This document shows positions 10,805-63,410 of a DNA stretch of 64,000 nt, piece by piece; position 1 is the stretch's first letter, and every line of letters starts with the position of its first letter. The notes below the pieces were generated by a model. The model saw only the letters and a program-made list of their open reading frames with translations, searched no databases and had not been told where the DNA came from. The position numbers and the translations under genes are program-made. The stretch is taken from assembly GCA_025786725.1 (NCBI GenBank), contig JAHLTZ010000022.1, forward strand, positions 310,001 through 374,000, in the 5' to 3' direction. The stretch is from Syncephalis fuscata S228 (Eukaryota; Fungi; Zoopagomycota).

Positions 10805-13201
10805 GATGATGATAAAGAGAAAGAATGGCACTGACTTGTTGGCGAGACAAAAGGAGAATACCGAGCTGAATATATGCTAAAGAAGAATAACTCTACTGAC
10901 AAAGCGGTAACTTTTATAATGCTTTGTTGTTGTTGTTATTGATGGTACGACAAGAGTAGTGATATAGGCAAATAAAAGAACTGTGGAACACACCAGGTGC
11001 GCCTGCTCAGTAGATTGGCGTGGCTATGCCTGTGTGTGTATGTGTGTATGTGTGTATGTGCGTGCGTGCAGGTACAAGAAGACAAGCAAGAAAGAAAGAA
11101 AAAGCGACTATTCAAGGGTGACCAGGTATATTATCTGTCTGTCCGTCTGTGTGTGCGTTTGTGTGTGAGGTATGAAGTGTGCGCGTAAGGGGCTTTTAAA
11201 GGAAGAATAATCTGTAGACACAGTAGAAGTAAAAGTAGCAGCAGCAAGAAGAGGAGGAGAAACGTGGCTTGTAACAACAAGGATAAACGTGTTCGTCAAA
11301 GATGTATTTGAGCTTCGTCAAGTATTCAGGACTTTTGAATTGATAGTTAGCAGGGGAAAGGCCGGCTACTAGCACTATAAAATAGTTGTACCCGATGGCT
11401 TGCTAATGTGGCGTGATAGTCGACAATGAAAAGGAAAAAGGCATGGAAGAAGAGTGGCTGCGTTTTGGCAAGTCCACCTTGAATAGCGGAAAAGTAGAAA
11501 ATCACCCGAATAAGAATGACCAAGCAAGAAAATGTAGTAAAAAGAGTGTTGATGAGTCGACCACGTTGTTACCTCGACGACTACGACGAATGGACAAGAG
11601 TGGAGCAAAGACGGTTGATTTTTATATAGCGGACTAGATGATATATGGTCTATTAGCTGGGTTGCTGCACATGTTATAGATTTAAAAGATCTGCCAGTGG
11701 CGTGCCAAGCATGCATCAATACCAAGAAAAATCAAGTGACCTGTGGCCAAGTAGCTTCATACAAAGACTGTCTAGCTATTTCTGCCGCTATAGCTTGGCC
11801 ATAAAACTAGCCATCAATTAGTAATGATAATTATCGATGGTGCATCAGTATAGGTCTCGTTGCAACTATGATTACACGTTCCTTCGACATGTCATCGTTG
11901 TTAGTGTTGTTGCACATCGATTTAATTTAATTGCCGGTTTTATCCGTTGCACAGCGTTTTGCTGCCAATAAAGGTCATAGCAACTTGGCTGACCTGTTTT
12001 TGGGCAAATTACAAATGTTGAAACGTTTTCTCCTATACACCATTGCTATGTTTTATGTCTTCTATAAGTAAGTGTTGATGAAAGGAGTCTGGTTGTAGCA
12101 ATAAAGGAATGCAAAATAGCTACATCAATCGTGTAAATGATTTCTCTATTTTAATTCAATGTATTTTTATTGCTATATTGTAAATGTTATAACACCATAT
12201 ATGATCTGTAGTTTACAGCTACATATTCATTATAATTAAAAAGCAATTGAAACAGTATCAAGCCAAGTGCATAGTTCATATTTGTCAAATATCTGGCTGT
12301 AATCATATTAAAACATAGCAGTGCAATAATCAGTAACTACAGACTATTCTATAACATGCATTGTTCATCAGCATCCATATTGCTATGCCCTCTATTTATT
12401 ACACTCTGTATTGCAAATATAATGCTTGATATGTAGTTTGTAATAAACTTGGCTTTGTTCAATGATATCGACTGGTCTATTTTACATTGACAAGTAATGT
12501 CTGATTAATGTATAAATAGCTATGCATGATCAAAAACTATCGAATGATTACATGTGATTATTGTGTTTATAAGTGTGTAGAGCACCATACAGTAAGTGCT
12601 GGACAATGATCTACAAAACATGACCTATCACCTAATATCAGCAGTAGTTGACATAATGCTAGCAAGCATATCACATTGCATATCTATTGTAACTGCAACA
12701 TATAACGACATACTGAATTGATTTAGCATCCATTGTGGCTATATTAACCAAAATCATGAATAGAGTGCTGATCCCAGCAATAAAAAGTTTCACGATGATA
12801 TTAACTTAGTTTAAGAACAACTAGAGTAAACTATTCGTTTATGATTATAACAAATAGTAATACGTACATTGTATAAAATATATCGTGGAAATAAAATGCA
12901 GATCAATCAAGCACATTTAAGTGGTAGTTTAAAGTATATGTATATTAACCATCCATAATGGACGAACATACAGCCAGTTTCTTTTAGTTTGTTTGAGATT
13001 TTAACAAGTAATACAGTATTTAAATAGTAGTGATTTAAAATCAAATTCGTATTTATTAATTATGTAATTTCGTTTAAAATTTAAAATAGTATAACTAATG
13101 ATGCATAAATAGTTTATCCATAAACAATAAGTAATTGACTGGATATACAGTTGTTATGGTTATACGGCAAGAATTTGATCTATGAAAATGCGCTTGCGCC
13201 G

Positions 13202-18039: not shown

Positions 18040-18740
18040 TCAACTCTATTTGAATTAGTTGAAGTTGAGCCAGTCCGCACTATTTTCAATATCAAAATAG
18101 ATATCAGATAGTATTTCATGTTACTTACAATAAAATATAATAAATAAATAAAGGCTAATCCACATTATTGTTATTATAAAGTATTCAAAGCATTATAGTT
18201 TGTTGATTGATGTTATTTATTATCCACCATCATGTTCAATAAATTGGATATTATTAAAGTAACCATTTTAATTACAAATCATACTAAATGACTAATATAT
18301 TTAATTAAATTGTATAATAGTGTTAAATGACACACAATATTTTATACAATGATATATTTTGTTTAACTTAATTAACAAGTATTAAAATTAAAAGTTAAAA
18401 ATGAAATGGTACATAGCATGTATATATTAGTACAATAACACTAACACAATTAAACAAAACAATTAACTAAATAATTATTGACATCATTGCTAAAAAGCTA
18501 ACATGGTTGTAATTGTAGTGAATGTAACTCATTGTAATATGTTAGTATTCAATCAATCTTTCTACACATAACCAACAACAACAATAATGACCAACCTCAA
18601 CCATTCCAAAGAAATCAATTTATTAATAACATTTTAATAAAAAGTAATATAATTGTGATGTGTATAACAACAGTGACATGACTTCAATTGGAACTAATTC
18701 TACTTTGGGGATTCAAAATAGAGGACACAAAGTAAATGTT
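18040..18740 (+). repeat. AT-rich dispersed repeat family, longest local copy (probable non-autonomous element)
   Basis: Colinear with 51420-52300, sharing e.g. gtacatagcatgtatatattagt; reverse-complement matches at ~40790-41260, ~46370-46760, ~47080-47230, ~57540-57790. Boundaries approximate. Confidence 0.75.
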
Positions 18741-30006: not shown

Positions 30007-30961
30007 TACTGCTAGTGGCCAATTAGCTACGAATTGCTTGCAAATAAGAACAATAAATGACGGGAAGACAAGAAAGTGCGTGCGTGGAAAAGTACGTGTA
30101 TAACTCAGCTTTTAGTCATTTGATTTTATTACTATATCTGTATATTTATTGCCTGTTACCAATTAAATAAAGACAAAATTTCTCACATTTATTAGCTATT
30201 GTTACAACACCAGTAGTGCGATGATGTAACATTGATCAAATAATAATTAAGAAGAGAGTATACAAATAGCTTAACCAGCTGTTTTAATATTATTCAGTAA
30301 ATAATTGCTATCAATATCAAATGACTTTAACATACAAATATAGCTTAAATTAGCAGGTTTATAACAGAAGCTGCATTTAAATTTAAGGTTTGTTGCATTT
30401 ATTGTACCTAACGTTTTCTCACCCTACCCATTTTATGCCATGTAGCTCCTATTAGAGTTCCAATAGTATTGTAAATACGTTATAATGGCATTTCAATAAC
30501 AATAAATTCCATTTATTGCTTCAATTTTATTTAGTTTACTGTCAGGATTTATACAATTGCAATTTCTGTTATAAACCTGCTAATTTAAGCTATATTTGTA
30601 TGTTAAAGTCATTTGATATTGATAGCAATTATTTACTGAATAATATTAAAACAGTTGGTTAAGCTATTTGTATACTCTCTTCTTAATTAGTTATTAGCAG
30701 CTCTATTTAATTATTGCACTGTCAATGTAATATTTTGAGCACACGTGTTGAATATCCTGTTTGATGATCTAAAATAGTATCTAGTGCATGCTAACATTCT
30801 TTTATGGTATTCTATCATATAAACTTAGGAGCACATGCTAAGTATTTATTCAAAGTATTTGCATTTTATATACAGCGTTTTAGTTTTATTTGTTTTTTGT
30901 CAACGTTTTTGCATCTAATTAAATTATCCAATTATTTTCATTACGACAGCTATTTATAACA

Positions 30962-32791: not shown

Positions 32792-33950
32792 ACAACTTAG
32801 ATACAGATCATGTTCAATGTTATTTTATTATTCTATTGGCAGTATTTTTTATAATAAACTAACTAGCAGATCATATTAAAGTTGTCCATGGTTCTAGTTA
32901 GCTATAATATTTAACATAGTGTATTTTCTGTCTAATAGATCCAATTTTAAATCGAAGAATCTTGAACCTCTGTTAGAAGCTAAATAAATGTAACAATCGC
33001 ATAAAATGTTGTGCTATTTAACATTATTATACATCTTGTTTTTATTAGCAAATTTATTAACCATTCAATATGATTTGGAAGAAAATAATTACATTCAATA
33101 ATATCCAATCTATTGAACATGATGATGGATAGTGAATGACATCAATCATCAAAATACTCATTATCGTAGATTTATTATCCAATATGCATATATTCATATA
33201 CATATATGTCATTTACGTAGCCTATTCATACCACTATATATTATTCTATTACACATTAAGCATATTTATTTGTTATAAATTTCAACACATTTCACCTAGA
33301 TACATATAAAATATGCATATTATATCTTTATCTTCCTTGATGACAAACTTGTACTTTACAAGTATTTGAATTAGCATTGCTTAAAAACAATAAAGCGCAG
33401 TAGTCGAATGCATCATTGATACATTCGGGCCATCTTAAATAATGTAATTTGTTATCGCCCCTTTTATTAAATTTTTGGAAGATTAAAGATTAAACGACCA
33501 TAGAATAATGTAGCGTTAATTAAACATAATGTACTATAATCGATTTTAAAAGTATATTGTTTTATTTATGTTTGGGTTCGTATAACTAGGCTGCAGCCAT
33601 TGGCAATTGGTGAATATGTAAACAATTGTTTCTTGGATGCCATCTCCATCCACATTCCATTTAAAATAAAACATTTTTATTATATAGTTACATAGATAAC
33701 AAGAACGCATTTTATACTGTTTTACCAATATTAGAAGCTGTGAGCAAGCTAGCAGTATCTAACAACTGATTGCCCCCTTCTATAAAGCATTTACACTCGT
33801 CAGTGGAGCCTTGCACGTTCATCGTAATAAAAAACGTAACAATCTCCTTATAGCTTGTCGAACTATCCGACTATTTCCTTTATTTTCTGCACTTTTGTTA
33901 TCTGCCAGTCTACTAGCATGTATTTGTATTATTCGTCGTTCAATCTATCA

Positions 33951-40789: not shown

Positions 40790-41260
40790 TTGTATTTGAC
40801 TCCTACATTATGAGTTCTTAAAGTAAAATTCGTTTAAATTAAAGTCATGTCGTTGTTATGCACAACAAACATAGTTATATTACTTATTAAAATACTGTGA
40901 ATAAATTGATTTCAATAAACAATGTAACATACTATTTGGTTTCTTTGGAATAGTTGAGACCGATCATTGTTGTTGTTGGTTATGTGTAGAAAGACTGATA
41001 GAATATTAATAAAAGCCATATCATTGTGATTCTATGTCATTTCGTCTTTGTTGGTATTGCATCTACGTACAGCATGAATTATTACATTTGAATGGTCTAT
41101 TCTATTTTCTAATTTTCTACTATTGCATTTTAAGCATATCTGTAATGTAAACTCAGTATTAATATAATTATTATAAATGTCGTTTATTAAACAACCACCT
41201 TTCCTATAGCCAATCTGACTAAATAAATGGCATTTTGAACAATTAATATCATAATAACCA
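40790..41260 (-). repeat. Copy of the AT-rich dispersed repeat
   Basis: Reverse complement matches 18500-18740 and 52020-52290; close direct match to 46370-46760. Confidence 0.75.
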
Positions 41261-46369: not shown

Positions 46370-46760
46370 AGATTAATTGTAACAAAACATTGTATCAGTA
46401 GATGATATTTTAAACATTTAAATAAAAATGTAACATACTATTTGATTTCATTGAAACATTTGAGGCCAATTGTTGTTGTTGGCCATGCATAGGAAAATTG
46501 ATTGAATGTTAATAGAAGCCATTGATTGCAATTCCATGCCATTGTGCATGTGTTGTTGCATCTATGTACATCATTGATTATTGCATTTGAATGGTCTCTT
46601 CTATTTTCCAATTTTCTACTATTGCATTTTGGATATATTTGTAATGTAAGGCCAAGATTAATATAATTATTATAAAAGTCGTTTATTAAACAGTTACTTC
46701 CCTTATAGCCAATCTGACTAAATAAATGACATTTTGAACAATTAATATCATAATGACAAT
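46370..46760 (-). repeat. Copy of the AT-rich dispersed repeat
   Basis: Shares tatagccaatctgactaaataaatg and ttttctactattgcatttt with 40900-41260. Confidence 0.75.
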
Positions 46761-51419: not shown

Positions 51420-52300
51420 ATACATACCGTGATGATATATGCATATTGGATAATAAATCTACAATGATGGGTATTTGATGATTGATGTCACTTACCACCC
51501 ATCATGTTCAACAGATTAAATGTTATTAAAATATTCGGGAGAGTCGTGGTGGCCTAAACAGTCAAAGCGTCTTCCCTTAGTAGGAAAGTGTTGGTTCGCC
51601 TAGTTCGAATCTTGTTTTTAGAAAATGCGTGATGAATCCTTCCGTAGAAGAAATGGTCGATATTCCAACACGTGAGGAGAGCCACCAACGGTTTCAGTTG
51701 TAGATGGCAGGTTCTGCGTTGCGCGCGAATAGGTTCGAAATGAACCGTCTATTCTCCTAGGGTGGCAGGCAAATGCTGCAAATGCACGGTTAGGTCCTAC
51801 GGACCGTTGTCTCACTCAAGCTAATAAATCCGAACTTGAATGTTATTAAAATAGTCATTTAATCACAAATCATACTACAATAATTGATAAATTTAATTAG
51901 ATTGTATAATAATGTCAAATGCCACACAATATTTTATATGATGCTGCAGTTTATTTAGCCAATTAACAAGTACTAAAAGTTAAAAGCTAAAAATGAAATA
52001 GTACATAGCATGTATATATTAGTGCAACAACAACAATTGCGGAATGACATATAATTGCAATCATATGAAATTTATCAATATTTAATCAATATTTCTATCG
52101 TGGCCAGTAACGACAGCAATAATCAATCTTAAACGTTTCAATGAAATTAAATAGTATGTTACATTTTTTATTTAAATCAATTTATTAACAACATTTTAAT
52201 AGAAAGTAATATAGTTGTGATGTGCATAACCACACGAATTCAATTGGAATAAATCTACTTTGTGGACTCAAATGTGAGAGTCAAAGTAAAAATGACTTGA
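51420..52300 (+). repeat. Copy of the AT-rich dispersed repeat, interrupted by SINE-A
   Basis: Colinear with 18200-18740 once 51534-51838 is removed. Confidence 0.75.
51534..51838 (+). mobile_element. tRNA-derived SINE (family A) with 15-bp target-site duplication
   Basis: A-box-like TGGCCTAAACAG, B-box GTTCGAATC, higher GC than flanks; AATGTTATTAAAATA duplicated at 51519-51533 and 51839-51853. Confidence 0.8.
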
Positions 52301-53886: not shown

Positions 53887-56026
53887 ACGAAGCTTTCCAT
53901 TGCCGTCGTTTGCACCATTGTCGTCGCGCCTGTGGCCGCTACAGCCATTGTGGATGCTGATCCAGCTTTAGTTCGTCGTGGTATGTTGCAATAACAATAA
54001 ATATGCCATAGCATTTGCTTACCAATAATATTGCTAACTAATGATGATATTAGATTGTAAGTTGTATTGCTTATTAACTGTAATTACTCATTAATTGCAT
54101 GTTATATACTATGTGTATTATTAACTTAATGCTAATAGGCGGTAAGTGATACTGTATATTACTGACTTATAAATTAATTAATAACATGTATTACGTGTAT
54201 ACATAACTTAATACCATAGATGGTAAGATGTATTGTGTATTAACCGACTATGTGCTAATTTTATGTGATACATTGTGTGTATCAACAACTTAATATAATA
54301 GATTGTAAGTTATATTTTATATTAAGCAAACATTGACTAATTATATACTATATATTGTGTACATCAATGACTTAATATTAATAGGCAGTAAGTAGCATTG
54401 TATGTTACTGACTTATAAATTAATTATATACCATACACTATGTGTATTAACGACTTAATATAATAGAAAGTAAGTTGTATTGTATATTATTATTTTATTT
54501 TATTTTGAAGAGCTTGTGAGCCCCCGCTGCGCATAATTAAAGAATTTGCGCTGCTTCCCACTATATTTGGACTTTTCCAAACTTTTAACGGGTGGACTGC
54601 CACGTTTTTGCGCAAAATCTGGTCCATATAGATTTTACACGGGGGCCATCTTCCTTTAAATGGTGCTACACAGCACTATTCTCTTGAAGTTGGTCCCAAT
54701 TGGGTTTTCCTCGGCTATTCTGGCCAAGGTCTTGTTTCCGGACCTACTTATTGGGTTCTGGTTTGCAATTTGTTAACTAGAGAAAACTGGGGGGGGGGAT
54801 TTTCCACTTAAGGATTGATTCAAACTGAGGTTTGAACCCGGAGCCTTCAGCTCGGGAGACGCTGCCTTACCAACTGGGCTAGCAACGTCCCCCTTGTATT
54901 GTATATTAACTGCCTATGTACTAATTATATATTGTGTATTATATGTATCAATAACTTGGCACTAATTACGTGTTATATATTGTGTGCATCAACAATCTTA
55001 TTAATAGGCAGTAAGTGGTATTGTATATTAGTTGACTATATATTAACTGCTATTTATTAATAATACCAATTATTTAATATTAATAGAATGTAAGTGATAT
55101 TGTATATTAGCTGACCATAGATTAACTATACTGTTTACTAATGGTATTAATTATTTAATATTAATAGAATGTAAGTGATATTGTATATTAGCTAACTATA
55201 CATTAACTATTTGTTTACTAATGGTATTAATTATTTAATATTAATAGGCGGTAAGTGATATTGTATATTAATTGACTATACATTAACTATACTATTTACT
55301 AATTGTATTAATTATTTAATATTAATAGTTGGTAAGTGATATTGTATATTAGCTGACTATACATTAACTATACTATTTACTAATTGTATTAATTATTTAA
55401 TATTAATAGAATGTAAGTGTATTGTATATTATGTACCGTTTACTAATTATATATTATGTACTTTATGAATCAACAACATTATTGATAGATTGTAAGTATA
55501 ATTTTATATTAATTGACTATGTACTGACCACATGCTATATAATGTGCGCATCAACAACTTAATATAATAGGCAGCAAGTAGTATTGTATATCACTTGACT
55601 ATTTACTAATTATATATTGCATTTTGTGTATCAATAACTTGCTACTAATAGACAGTAAGTTGTATTGTATACTAACTGGCTACTCACTAATTACATGCTA
55701 TTTACTGTATCCATCAACAACTTAATATCAATAGAGCGTAAGTTGTATTGTATACTAACTGGCTACTCACTAACTAAATGTTATTTACTGTATTCGCCAA
55801 CAATTTAATATTAATAGAATGTAAGTAGCATTGTATATTAATTGACTATGTACTGACCAAATGCTATATACTGTGTGTATTAATAACTTAATATAATAGG
55901 CAGTAAGTAGTACTGTATATTAATAGATTATACATTAACTATATGACATGTAATATCTTTCTTTATAAATGCCGATAACCCGCAGCTATAAGAGCATCAG
56001 CATCGGTAGTACAATCAAACCACTAG
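53887..56026 (+). CDS. Microexon gene 1: secreted Cys-rich peptide precursor with 18 three-nucleotide exons; ACG start and one in-frame stop, so possibly a pseudogene or dependent on exon skipping
   Basis: Exon 1 is 53887-53980: (M)KLSIAVVCTIVVAPVAATAIVDADPALVRR+G. TAG|NNN|GT(GC) exons start at 54054, 54139, 54220, 54302, 54385, 54467, 55008, 55087, 55168, 55248, 55329, 55410, 55489, 55571, 55652, 55735, 55818, 55900. Final acceptor uncertain (55985, 56000 or 56009, all in frame to TAG 56026). Confidence 0.75.
53981..55940 (+). repeat. Tandem array of ~79-85-bp intron+microexon units
   Basis: Consensus GTAAGTnnnnTTGTATATTA...CTAATT...AACTTAATATTAATAG + NNN. Confidence 0.95.
54490..54893 (-). 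mobile_element. tRNA-derived SINE (family B), copy 1, inside an intron of microexon gene 1
   Basis: Reverse complement of 60809-61210 with no differences seen apart from the tail; TSD TTGTATTGTATATTA at 54475-54489 and 54894-54908. Confidence 0.9.
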
Positions 56027-58191
56027 TACAATACACTTTAGATATATATTCGGTAAAAATCAAAACCATTTGACAACTACGCCGTCCAGTCTATTTATAT
56101 ATCAAGTTTTGGCCAATGCTCTGGTTTATCCAGTCTTTAATCAATGGGATCATTATTTTACCACCAAGCTTGCATCTAGTTGTTTCTATTCAACTGTGCA
56201 AGTTTATTGTAATAAACCTATGGTTCCATCCTAACTATATACAATCAAATAGCTATATTTATAATCATGTTTTATTGATATCTAAAAACCGATAATTATT
56301 AATTATTAGTCAAACTAACAAAAGACATGTACGATATATTGTATTAGCTATAGGCATAGGTTGGTATGAATAGTAGCAAAACTATTATTACCATATAGCC
56401 AAATAATATTATAAAACGAATTAAATAGAGAAATTCAATACGTGAATAGTGATAGTGAGACTATACTGTATACAATTAACCAAGAATAATGAACAAAATG
56501 AATTAAAATCTACTAAAAGAATACAGTTAGCAATAAAATTTTAGCTTTTGTTAATGTAATTTTTGCAATATACACTATTAATGATATAGACGGACATATA
56601 GTATATGTATACAGAATAGATATGTACAGTACAATAATAATGATAAATAAATAGCTTAATGACCAATGACACTCACCACTCAATTTCATCTTTAATAAAG
56701 CAAATATCTTGTTTAAATGTATGGCTATTATAGCTATTTAACTGCCAAATCACATTAAATAACCAATAGTGTACTTAATATTGTGTAAGAGTTGTTTTTA
56801 TTTAGCTAATAAAAGTATTATAATATTTAGTACAAATCAAGTGGTTTAAATGATCTGTCACAACACCCTTTTAAGCTTCTTTCGCCATGTTCCACAACTT
56901 TTTTAAATTAGAACATTGGCGTGGCTATTGTGAAATTTAGGAATGAATATTACAAATAGCTTGTTTTAGTTTATCAATGGAAAATGCCATGTTGGCGGCT
57001 TTATTTTGCATATCTTTACTCATGTTTGATACACTAGCTAGTTAATTTGAGTTGATCAAAGCAATAATATTTTATATAATTCGGAATTATTTAATTGCTA
57101 AATCTTATATCTGAAACGCTCCAAGCCAGTCTAATTTTATTTTTTAATTAAATCATTTTTATTTGCATTACACTTTATTCATTTTAATAGTTGCTTCGTT
57201 AGTAGTTTGTATTTGTTTTTCAATAAAGACATTTGTTTTAACATTAACTACCAGTTCAATATTAATACTAATTCCTACAGAACCTATTCTTGTATTATAT
57301 TTTTGCGTTACATTTGCCATCAGTATATTATTGAAAGTTTTTTAAAAAGCACAATTGGCGTTGCTGTTAACATTGCTACAATTAACTAAATTACGCAAAT
57401 AAGCAAAGTTTTAAATTAAAATTGTTGCATTTATTGTAATTAACTTTTTCCCTATCAGGCATTTTTAGCTTTTTCAAAATTCCTCAATTTTGCTTTAACT
57501 TTTCTATTTTGAATTCTCAAAGCAAAATTAGTTCCAATCAAAAACATGTTATTATGTACAACAAACATAGTCATAATGTTTTCATTGACTAATTTAAAAT
57601 CTGTGAGGCCGATCATTATTGTTGTTGGTTATGCGTAGAAAGATTGATTGAATATTAATAAAAGCCATTGATCGCAATTCCATATTGTTCCGCAGTTGTT
57701 ATTGTTGTCAGTACGTACAGTGTGGTTTCCTTGCGTCTGAATGGTTTATTCTATTATCCAATCTTCTACTATTGCATTTGAGCATTTTTGGTATCAACTT
57801 GGCAGGTGCAAATTATTTGCCAACCATTGATAAAACAAATGGCCTCCACCATATGCAATAATGATAAGTTGAGCGTCTTCACTAGGAAGAACTTGTGGCA
57901 ACAGCTGTAACCAGAATATACGGCATACCGTTGAGGTTACTTGAACAAATATTGATGCAAAATAAGAGAAATAAAGACTAGGAATTGAAGTGTTTTTTAT
58001 TGATGTTCAAATACACATGCTATTTATATTGTTATATTCAACATTATTGTATAATATGTTACTGAATAGAATATTTAAAAAAATAAGACGACAAGATAGT
58101 AATGAGAAAAAGGCGGTGAAATGAGTCAATAAAAATGTGAAAATCAAAGTACAGTAGTTCCATCTTTTTAATTTAAATAATACAGAAACAG

Positions 58192-60699: not shown

Positions 60700-63410
60700 T
60701 CAATCTAACAGCACTAATGTTTTGCAAGCATCGATTACATTAGTTTATAAACAAAAAACAGTATGTGTTATATAATTCGTGAGTATTCAATTAATATACA
60801 ACATCACAGGGGGACGTTGCTAGCCCAGTTGGTAAGGCAGCGTCTCCCGAGCTGAAGGCTCCGGGTTCAAACCTCAGTTTGAATCAATCCTTAAGTGGAA
60901 AATCCCCCCCCCCAGTTTTCTCTAGTTAACAAATTGCAAACCAGAACCCAATAAGTAGGTCCGGAAACAAGACCTTGGCCAGAATAGCCGAGGAAAACCC
61001 AATTGGGACCAACTTCAAGAGAATAGTGCTGTGTAGCACCATTTAAAGGAAGATGGCCCCCGTGTAAAATCTATATGGACCAGATTTTGCGCAAAAACGT
61101 GGCAGTCCACCCGTTAAAAGTTTGGAAAAGTCCAAATATAGTGGGAAGCAGCGCAAATTCTTTAATTATGCGCAGCGGGGGCTCACAAGCTCTTCAAAAT
61201 AAAAATAAAATAATATACAACATCACTTACTGCCTATTATGTGAGGTTTTTATACATACATCACATAATATAAAATTGGCGTATAGTCAACGTGTATACC
61301 GTATTATTAGCCATCTATTGATATTGAGTCATAGATGCACACAGTAAATAGCATGTGATTAGTGTCGAGTCGATTAATATGCAATGCCACTTACCGCCTA
61401 TTAATATTAAGTTGTCAATACACATAGTTCATAGTATATAATTAGTGCATATTTAGCTGCTATACCATGTCACTTACAATCTATTAATATTAGTTTGTTG
61501 ATGAGCACAGTTCATAGCATTTAATTAATGCATAAGCAATTAACACACAGCAGCACTTACTCTCTATCAATAACAGATCATTGATACATGCAATACATAT
61601 TATGTAGTTATTATATAGTCAATTTATATAAAACTACACTTACCGGCTATTAATATTAAGTTATTAAGGCACACATAACAGAAAAATATAATTAGCGTAT
61701 AATTAATTGATATACAATGTTACCTACGGCCTATTATAATAAATTTTAGTATACAAAGTACATGGCATATAATTAGCGTATAGTTAATTGATATAAAATG
61801 ATTCTTACAAGCTATTATAACAAGTTGTTGATGCACATGACACATATCATTTGATGAGTGTATTTCCATAAATATATATTAGCACTTACATTCTATTAAT
61901 ATCAAATAGTTAAATATACACATTTTATAGCATATAATTAATTTAAGGCCAACTATGCATATATATATATATCGTCACTTACTAACTATTATATCAGTTG
62001 TTTGTAATATAATATATGGTGGATAGTTAGCGTATAATTAGCTGATATGCAATAGCACTTACTGCCTATTATGTTATATTGCCAATATACATATTATAAA
62101 ATATATAGTCATTACATAGTTAATTAGTGAATAATAGTATTGAGAGTACACTAGCTCTCCAAACTAGCTATTATACAATAACACTTACAAGCTATTGATG
62201 TCAAATTGTCAGATATGCGCATTGCATAGCAGCGATTAGTGTATAATTACTTAGCATATAATAGCACTTACGAACTATTGATATTAAGTTTTATGTATAT
62301 AGTATCCAATGTGTAATTAGCGCATATTCAAGTGTTATTAAATAACACTTGCCAACTATTAATATTAAATTATCAAACGCACGCATTATATAGTATGTGG
62401 TTAGTGTGTGGTCAGTTAATATACAAACTACTAACAAACTATTAATATTGTGCCGTTTATACAGGCGGCAAATAGCATTTAATTAATGTATAGCTAAAAA
62501 GTATAAGTATCACTTACAGCCTATCAATTTTAAGTTATTGGTAGAAACATTATACAAAATGTAATTAGTATAGAACTGATTAGTATACAATGGCACCTAC
62601 AATCTATTATATGAGATTTTGATACAATCATATAGTATATAATTAGTTCGTATATAAGCAGTACATAGTTCCACTTACACCCTATGAATATTGAGTTGTT
62701 GGTAAAATAGTAAATAAGTGTAATTAGTACAAAGCTAGCTAGTTTACAATGTCACCTACATCCTATTATATTATATTTTAAATAAATAAAATTTATAAAA
62801 TACAGTTAGCACATAGCTAATCAGTGCGCAGCTTCACTTACGTCCTATTAATATTATGTTGTTGATAGATATGACAGACAACATGCAGTTAGGCTATATT
62901 CAATTAGTATACAGTCTCACTTACGTCCTGTTAAAGTTATGTTGTTAACGCATGTAATACATAGCATATAATTGGTAAGTAATCAATTAATATAAATAAC
63001 ACTCACCGTCTATTGGTATTAGTTAGTTGATATAATGGCATATACCATACCATTAGTGTGCAATCAATAAATATACAATGCTACTTACGGGCTATTGATA
63101 TTAGGTTGATAAATGAATACAATAATTAGTTAGATTGCTATTAAGATACAATACCACTTACTATCTATTTATGTTGATTTGGCAAACAAAAGCAATGTTC
63201 AATTAAATCTTAATTAATATGTAATATTACTTACGTGCTATTAATGTTGATTCAGCATTGGTTAAACATAATACTAGTAAGCATAAATTATTGTTTAGTT
63301 ATTTTAAGTGCACATACGACGACCTTCTTGATTTGGCGTAGCATCCACTATGGCTATATTAGCTACAAAAGCCACGAAGAAAGTAAAAAGACGACAATGA
63401 AAAGGTTCAT
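60700..63410 (-). CDS. Microexon gene 2: secreted Cys-rich peptide precursor with 25 three-nucleotide exons
   Basis: Exon 1 is 63410-63318 and needs +1 T in the homopolymer at 63385-63389 to equal the 94-nt paralogous exon: MNLFIVVFFTFFVAFVANIAIVDATPNQEGR+C. The 25 microexons give PHTHGRRWYCFFVPCIKSCPENCDG with no stop; last exon gives MLLD* or N*. Confidence 0.85.
60809..61210 (+). mobile_element. tRNA-derived SINE (family B), copy 2, inside the last intron of microexon gene 2
   Basis: Head GGGGGACGTTGCTAGCCCAGTTGGTAAGGC...CTCCCGA...GGTTCAAACC (A and B boxes, Gly-CCC-like loop); (TAAAA)n tail; TSD TAATATACAACATCAC at 60792-60807 and 61211-61226. Confidence 0.9.
61211..63317 (-). repeat. Tandem array of ~73-93-bp intron+microexon units (one 126-bp unit)
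   Basis: On the + strand ACTTAC-NNN-CTA, or a close donor variant, recurs 25 times with ~82-bp period. Confidence 0.95.

Follow-up and report, generated by a model that had tools for sequence, protein, structure and literature searches.

The closest described counterparts of the genes considered here are the nank (NACHT-ankyrin) genes of Tuber melanosporum, in which tens of 3-bp exons stand in a row and are alternatively spliced (Iotti et al. 2012, cited in PMC4986451, PMC3689799 and PMC10197012). We analysed a 64,000-nt stretch of the genome of Syncephalis fuscata S228 (contig JAHLTZ010000022.1, positions 310,001 to 374,000, forward strand; hereafter the window) carrying two arrays of three-base putative exons, 18 on the plus strand (gene 1, 54054–55902) and 25 on the minus strand (gene 2, 63237–61231), which confirms the 43 units counted in an earlier note on this DNA. 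Judging from the passages that cite the Tuber work, both systems consist of runs of 3-bp exons with canonical splice sites (here at the DNA level) in a fungal gene family that is expanded, diversifying and linked to how the fungus interacts with other organisms, and the fact that codon-sized exons have already been described in Tuber limits the surprise of finding them here. The Syncephalis host gene differs in encoding a small, predicted secreted Cys-rich peptide instead of a NACHT-ankyrin receptor, and in this zoopagomycete phase-1 introns would interrupt the entire mature part. The passages on the Tuber work point to alternative splicing and are silent on near-identical introns or DNA-level exchange, which the original may cover.

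The micro-exon genes (MEGs) of Schistosoma, with exons of 3–81 bp and introns of up to 5 kb, are said to be restricted to flatworms (PMC4350168, PMC10526429). According to the excerpts of these sources, they share with the Syncephalis genes a parasitic bearer, a predicted signal peptide, a coding region that would here, too, consist mostly of small symmetric exons, family expansion, a fast-changing mature part and transposon insertions, whereas the Syncephalis array is fungal, all its exons are 3 bp long and its homologous introns are short (70–90 nt in all but two cases). In Ectocarpus, one-repeat exons of 24 or 42 residues are shuffled by recombination; according to passages from that paper, each exon holds one repeat unit, recombination takes place within and between genes, gene birth and death are high and pseudogenes occur, all of which parallels the present case, but there the exon itself repeats, while in Syncephalis the intron repeats and the exon is one codon (PMC3341825). 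The WD repeats of the Podospora nwd/HNWD genes combine concerted evolution with a few hypervariable positions (PMC4986451), and in the part of that source available the likeness extends to homogenisation within and between genes around those positions, although the conserved repeat is coding there and non-coding, predicted to be spliced out, in Syncephalis. The Syncephalis array is akin in its working to the nank and MEG designs and a member of neither; no paper on such genes in Syncephalis or on such arrays was found in a search that most subscription journals lay outside. What appears new is a mature peptide seemingly built wholly from one-codon exons, together with evidence that the triplets probably predate the likeness of the introns and a matched control over unrelated arrays. 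Introners, by comparison, are near-identical mobile introns scattered in unrelated genes, whereas within the window the Syncephalis intron unit is confined to the two arrays.

Gene 1 is made up of the following parts:

53887..53980, plus strand: exon 1, predicted to encode the signal and pro-peptide, with two Arg at its end and a phase-1 donor at 53981
54054..55902, plus strand: array of 18 three-base putative exons with homologous introns of 76–82 nt and one 538-nt intron with an insert
54054, 54139, 54220, 54302, 54385, 54467, 55008, 55087 and 55168, plus strand: starts of putative exons 1–9
55248, 55329, 55410, 55489, 55571, 55652, 55735, 55818 and 55900, plus strand: starts of putative exons 10–18
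55087..55412, plus strand: block of four introns (55090–55167, 55171–55247, 55251–55328 and 55332–55409) among the triplets AAT, AAT, GCG, TTG and AAT
55652..55820, plus strand: second similar intron pair, 90% identical, among the triplets ACA, AGC and AAT; first 36 nt identical, 8 differences beyond
55986..56026, plus strand: predicted last coding exon, proposed from acceptor and frame, with 13 further residues and then a stop

Exon 1 is 77–83% identical to S. fuscata hypothetical proteins, and its length of 94 nt sets phase 1 for the triplets that follow. At the DNA level the splice signals of the two arrays are intact, with GTAAGT at 31 of 41 donors and ATAG at the end of 40 of 42 acceptors; of 40 introns, 24 have a branch-like motif near position -10 and 15 have none. 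That the triplets are spliced-in exons, read in order in phase 1, is a well-supported reading of the sequence, under which the three-base units would supply 18 of the ~31 predicted mature residues of gene 1.

The likeness of neighbouring introns, which the earlier note had described with correct coordinates and triplets throughout, is most pronounced in the four-intron block. The 78-nt introns 55251–55328 and 55332–55409 differ at 2 of 78 bases; intron 55090–55167 differs from these two at 6 and 4 bases, respectively, intron 55171–55247 at 7 and 5, and the latter two introns differ from each other at 5, giving 91–97% pairwise identity (2–7 differences) within the block. Introns 55655–55734 and 55738–55817 are indeed a further similar pair, with differences at 8 of 80 bases. 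The triplets between these introns behave differently: those at 55329 (TTG) and 55410 (AAT) differ at 3/3 bases despite 56 identical upstream bases, as do those at 55168 (AAT) and 55248 (GCG), whose flanks are identical for 36 bases upstream and 20 downstream. Given 9 changes over 67 non-splice-signal sites in the block introns, 0.40 changes are expected in the triplets, which need at least 5 and thus change 12 times as much as the introns predict (Poisson P ~6e-5, an optimistic value as the block was chosen after the fact as the most similar). The reversal of the usual conservation of exons over introns holds, but the likeness is local (median intron identity 65% over 820 pairs of 41 introns), and no pair including a minus-strand intron exceeds 79% identity. 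Different triplets beside alike introns are likewise the case for most of the block; the triplet at 55087, left out of the earlier account, is AAT like that at 55168, with which it forms an in-frame TAA.

The units likely belong to a gene whose predicted product is a secreted Cys-rich peptide, each mature codon being split by its own phase-1 intron. A profile search identified 10 family proteins among 124 candidates, every one from S. fuscata, with a hydrophobic N-terminus common to all 10 (signal peptide judged by eye). Six of these relatives (15 pairs) are 68–89% identical over the first 28 residues and 7–57% in their mature parts, and two of them, P0037 and P0045, have six Cys each, with spacings of 2,3,11,5,3 and 2,3,13,3,3, respectively. 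Read in phase 1, gene 1 gives 5 Cys (spacing 2,4,3,3) and one stop, and gene 2 gives 4 Cys (4,3,3) and no stop. Cys frames occur in phase 1 alone, the other phases yielding 0 or 1 Cys; shuffling of exon order predicts 4.1 Cys and 3.8 stops, whereas 9 Cys (P=0.0008) and 1 stop (P=0.04) are observed. The gene 1 reading aligns to P0045 with a score of 43 and 8 identities, leaving a gap of 13 residues (P=0.0009 when exon order is shuffled, one of 18 tests), and this alignment runs across the near-identical block, the triplets of which supply a shared Cys and a Tyr column. Pfam assigned no family to any of the four S. fuscata relatives scanned; the structure model of P0037 is weak (predicted local distance difference test score 66, predicted template modelling score 0.39, helical) with no PDB match, and no Atlas match was found. 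Three S. fuscata relatives, P0043, P0041 and P0046, have the signal part of the family and other mature types, one being Cys-free and Lys/Ala-rich and two being models that resemble different frames of one sequence type.

Since the alignment of gene 1 with P0045 takes in the homogenised block, the identity of the triplets is probably older than the likeness of the introns. We posit, as on balance the better account, that neighbouring units recombined and their introns thereby became alike, the older triplets being preserved by selection. The array would have arisen by tandem copying of intron-plus-triplet units, after which misaligned units may have exchanged sequence through gene conversion or unequal crossing-over. 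Exchanges within an intron would be neutral and persist, whereas those crossing a triplet would alter two codons and mostly be removed, some surviving to change or delete residues. Gene 1 would later have decayed, acquiring an ACG start, a stop and an insert resembling a short interspersed nuclear element (SINE), and becoming ~13 residues shorter than its two six-Cys relatives. Among the three options raised in the earlier note (homogenised introns with exon identity held by selection, diversifying selection on the triplets, and shuffling of codon cassettes), the first thus fits best on the strength of the match to P0045, though conversion tracts themselves were not demonstrated.

Arrays outside the window provided a matched control. 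A three-unit pattern scan of metagenomes returned at least 130 stretches, of which 128 loci were analysed; 73 were left after removal of 10 loci that overlapped others or were duplicates, of loci below 4 units, and of arrays that were open when unspliced or in which one triplet exceeded 60%. Pairs were called close when their 50 distal flank bases differed at no more than 2 positions; there were 153 such pairs in 29 of the 73 arrays, and they are not independent of one another. Five held-out intron triplets between the same distal flanks, with splice signals kept out, served as controls. Exon sites of close pairs differ at 0.43 per site, compared with 0.04–0.14 at the held-out intron triplets, and two or more differences occur in 42% of exon pairs against at most 2.6% of controls (17 of the 29 loci contain such exon pairs, compared with 3 or fewer for the controls). 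Exons are therefore more divergent than the adjacent introns, the opposite of what the earlier note named as a refutation, both in the block and in arrays treated as unrelated, since L082 alone among the 128 loci matches the window genes, and only weakly (DNA, 118 nt, 71%). About 20% of the outside close pairs look as if copied together with their triplet, and the remainder look unlinked. Among 20 outside loci scanned for neighbours, four adjoin HET, two kinase and two NACHT-type/ankyrin frames, the last (L021 and L064) recalling the Tuber genes.

The same pattern was found in prokaryote genomes at 39 loci, 38 of them with a near-uniform triplet and mostly repeat-spacer arrays of Cyanobacteria, which we take to be clustered regularly interspaced short palindromic repeats (CRISPR). 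The Syncephalis units, likened in the earlier note to a repeat-spacer array with 3-nt spacers, are not of this prokaryotic kind: the layout is reversed, with ~78 nt constant and 3 nt variable as opposed to CRISPR-like variable spacers of 30–40 nt, and the triplets vary here while that of the cyanobacterial look-alikes is invariant.

Transcript and contig data bear on whether the triplets are used and whether the array is real. Run X1 was taken as RNA because two introns of the ABC1 gene of the window, itself 80% identical to S. pseudoplumigaleata ABC1, are skipped in it. Of the 26 X1 contigs over 53925–54053, nine depart from the genome at 53980–82 with ~150 loose bases, and in the X1 contigs of relatives depth drops from 30,397 to 67 at the exon-1 donor; the contigs show relatives departing at the first donor, not triplet inclusion. 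None of the 26 is 99% alike to gene 1, which is no proof of silence, and family exon-1 contigs are very deep in this run, depth being a poor measure of expression. Among the DNA matches listed (32 of 1,421 pieces), no exact contig bridges 55090–55412; one contig bridges the triplet at 55735 with 2 differences, another that is ~90% alike covers 55275–55384, and gene-2 units are bridged by exact contigs.

Several observations weigh against recombination between neighbouring units under selection for older triplets. No joined triplets were seen in the X1 contigs, where the 30-nt consensus of the loose ends is mixed (agreement 0.55–0.63), and the matches of gene 1 to P0037 (P=0.08) and P0041 (P=0.33) are not significant. 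The search for conversion tracts yielded no clustering test that survives 780 pairwise comparisons (best P=0.001; 0.068 for 55655/55738), the variable sites of the four block introns fit a simple tree, and introns farther apart are not significantly less identical (rho -0.15, P=0.11; rho -0.05, P=0.39). Three of the eight close pairs tested in the window (55090/55171, 55090/55332 and 55492/55821) need no exon change, close pairs with identical triplets occur at 10 of the 29 outside loci, and the outside count is biased to variable exons by the dropping of uniform-triplet arrays beforehand. Finally, should the AAT-AAT stop stem from a unit duplication of the same age as the 6% pair 55090/55171, the gene would already have been dead when the 2.6% pair arose, with no selection left to guard its triplets, unless one AAT is skipped. 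The stop aligns, as read from the alignment, to a column holding Tyr in P0045, and therefore may be a late change rather than a duplication.

A different account of the same introns, which we hold to be unlikely, makes them homology arms for codon-cassette swapping, with short exchanges importing triplets from another unit or paralogue. Differences confined to the triplet between long identical flanks, often at 3/3 bases, are what such exchanges would leave, and the close pairs of the outside arrays come near to random expectation, 48/40/37/28 of them showing 0/1/2/3 differences where 22/39/47/45 are expected. Gene 1 re-uses its triplets in blocks (its 18 triplets are of 9 kinds, where 13.7 are expected, P=0.0004), 13 of 34 outside loci show re-use at P<=0.05, and the ~90% contig over 55275–55384 implies that related units exist elsewhere. 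The block triplets nonetheless hold the family frame, which random import would break; selection on Cys codons also narrows the triplet vocabulary; and gene 2 is without re-use, 21 of its 25 triplets being distinct (P=0.70).

Under another reading, a single unit was recently duplicated in tandem and the triplets then diverged very fast, through diversifying selection or targeted mutation. This would explain the tree-like introns of the block and the pairs 55090/55171 (AAT, AAT) and 55492/55821, which fit plain duplication. It also accords with the hypervariable mature peptides of the relatives, and divergence of exons over introns is a feature of venom genes, for which a literature search returned nothing. 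It is nevertheless improbable: the 12 exon bases would have had to take up at least 5 substitutions while the 67 intron sites took up 9, and these substitutions would have had to rebuild the Cys and Tyr columns of the family by chance. Point mutation, moreover, predicts mostly single differences, whereas 65 of the 105 differing close pairs outside differ at 2–3 bases.

RNA-guided homogenisation, in which abundant excised introns or their retroelement-made cDNA would be copied onto sister introns and the exons by nature spared, we regard as very doubtful. Runs of identity do stop at exon borders (56 nt up to 55410 and 36 nt from 55655), the exon-1 contigs of the family are very deep in run X1, a young SINE-like element present twice in array introns may point to reverse-transcriptase activity, and the process would work in a dead gene as it needs no selection. 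There is, however, no direct sign of it, DNA conversion with selection yields an equal pattern, and the pairs that look copied together with their triplet call for copying at the DNA level. An error of assembly, or non-coding satellite DNA in which splice-like motifs occur by chance, would suit the lack of an exact contig over the block among the matches listed, the cyanobacterial arrays that match the motif pattern and the lack of a contig 99% alike to gene 1 among the 26 of X1, but is very unlikely given four mutually distinct introns (2–7 bases), a triplet order that is non-random for Cys and matches a relative, contigs bridging the 55735 triplet and gene-2 units, and the near-uniform triplet in 38 of the 39 prokaryote matches.

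If the triplets are spliced in, the spliceosome would, in a family of abundant transcripts, accurately join 18–25 three-base exons one after another, making these genes a test case for the recognition of three-base exons. Reversed conservation uncouples the homology used in recombination (introns) from the coding information (triplets), which are normally tied, so that tract length, co-conversion and selection become measurable codon by codon. Gene finders are likely to miss such genes, and secreted-peptide families may therefore hide as 'satellite' DNA. A broader and rather speculative proposition, which we think more probably wrong than right by some way, is that one-codon-exon arrays are a dedicated heritable peptide diversifier of many eukaryotic origins, with introns as repeats and triplets as swappable spacers, allowing single residues to be rewritten, added or deleted in frame; Syncephalis would then hold a library of secreted disulfide peptides against host fungi, its introns perhaps kept alike from their own excised RNA.

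The copy of gene 1 in the window looks broken, as judged from its ACG start where relatives carry Met, the TAA across AAT-AAT and a 404-nt insert in intron 6. The features of this intron and of the other family copies are as follows:

54490..54893, minus strand: SINE-like insert of 404 nt in intron 6 of gene 1; its head is tRNA-like and its tail A-rich, and it has a target-site repeat of 15 nt
54894..55007, plus strand: rest of intron 6, over-long (115 nt including the target repeat)
63318..63410, minus strand: exon 1 of the paralogue gene 2, with a length of 93 nt, its T run having one base fewer than that of gene 1
61231..63237, minus strand: gene 2 array of 25 three-base putative exons, with introns ~63% identical to each other
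60810..61213, plus strand: second SINE-like copy, in the last intron of gene 2, with 2 differences from the copy at 54490–54893
12600..12793, minus strand: third, degenerate family copy comprising an exon 1 with a GTG start, the first intron and a single triplet, with no array

The remainder of intron 6 resembles most of one intron fused to the 3' half of another, possibly a deletion junction or an internal duplication. For the 5-Cys spacing of gene 1, loss of an exon in intron 6 was considered, and the family comparison also fits a larger deletion. The frame of gene 2 meets a stop downstream of its ATG because of the missing base in the T run, which is either a real frameshift or an assembly slip. 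Both SINE-like copies are antisense to their gene, sit at an equal position of the intron motif ~20 nt past the donor and have their own target-site repeat, which suggests a target preference. Contigs of the element are very deep in run X1; ARAGORN and Rfam gave no match to the insert, the tRNA-like head of which we read, presumptively, as an A/B-box.

Introns 55492–55570 and 55821–55899, four units apart, each split a Cys codon, are 89% identical and have matching triplets; this single pair hints at in-register four-unit copying.

Among the outside loci, L002, L026, L051 and L126, with an invariant GGA, were entertained as conserved exons and dropped, the repeat of L002 and L026 being that of the cyanobacterial arrays. 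A cyanobacterial repeat with variable spacers mimics the order acceptor-triplet-donor and constitutes a class of false positives (L002, L026, L051, L126 and most of L130–L167). Another set of arrays lies on very AT-rich contigs (L001, L005, L019, L027, L106 and others; guanine-plus-cytosine content 0.15–0.26); their 12–27 triplets are spaced ~95 nt apart, and in many cases no reading but phase 1 is open, with L001 and L005 upstream of kinase domains. Long arrays of 22–38 units were also found (L095:16-2601, L034, L065, L091 and L128), some of which re-use few triplets (L065, 13 kinds against 25.5 expected).

Elsewhere in the window, a 141-nt inverted repeat (30239–30378 and 30555–30695, arms 96% identical) is a possible miniature inverted-repeat transposable element. 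Dispersed repeat fragments 68–84% alike lie at 18100–18740, 32980–33190, 40800–41260, 46420–46760, 51430–52290 and 57500–57780, and the repeat near 57600 has many variant contigs.
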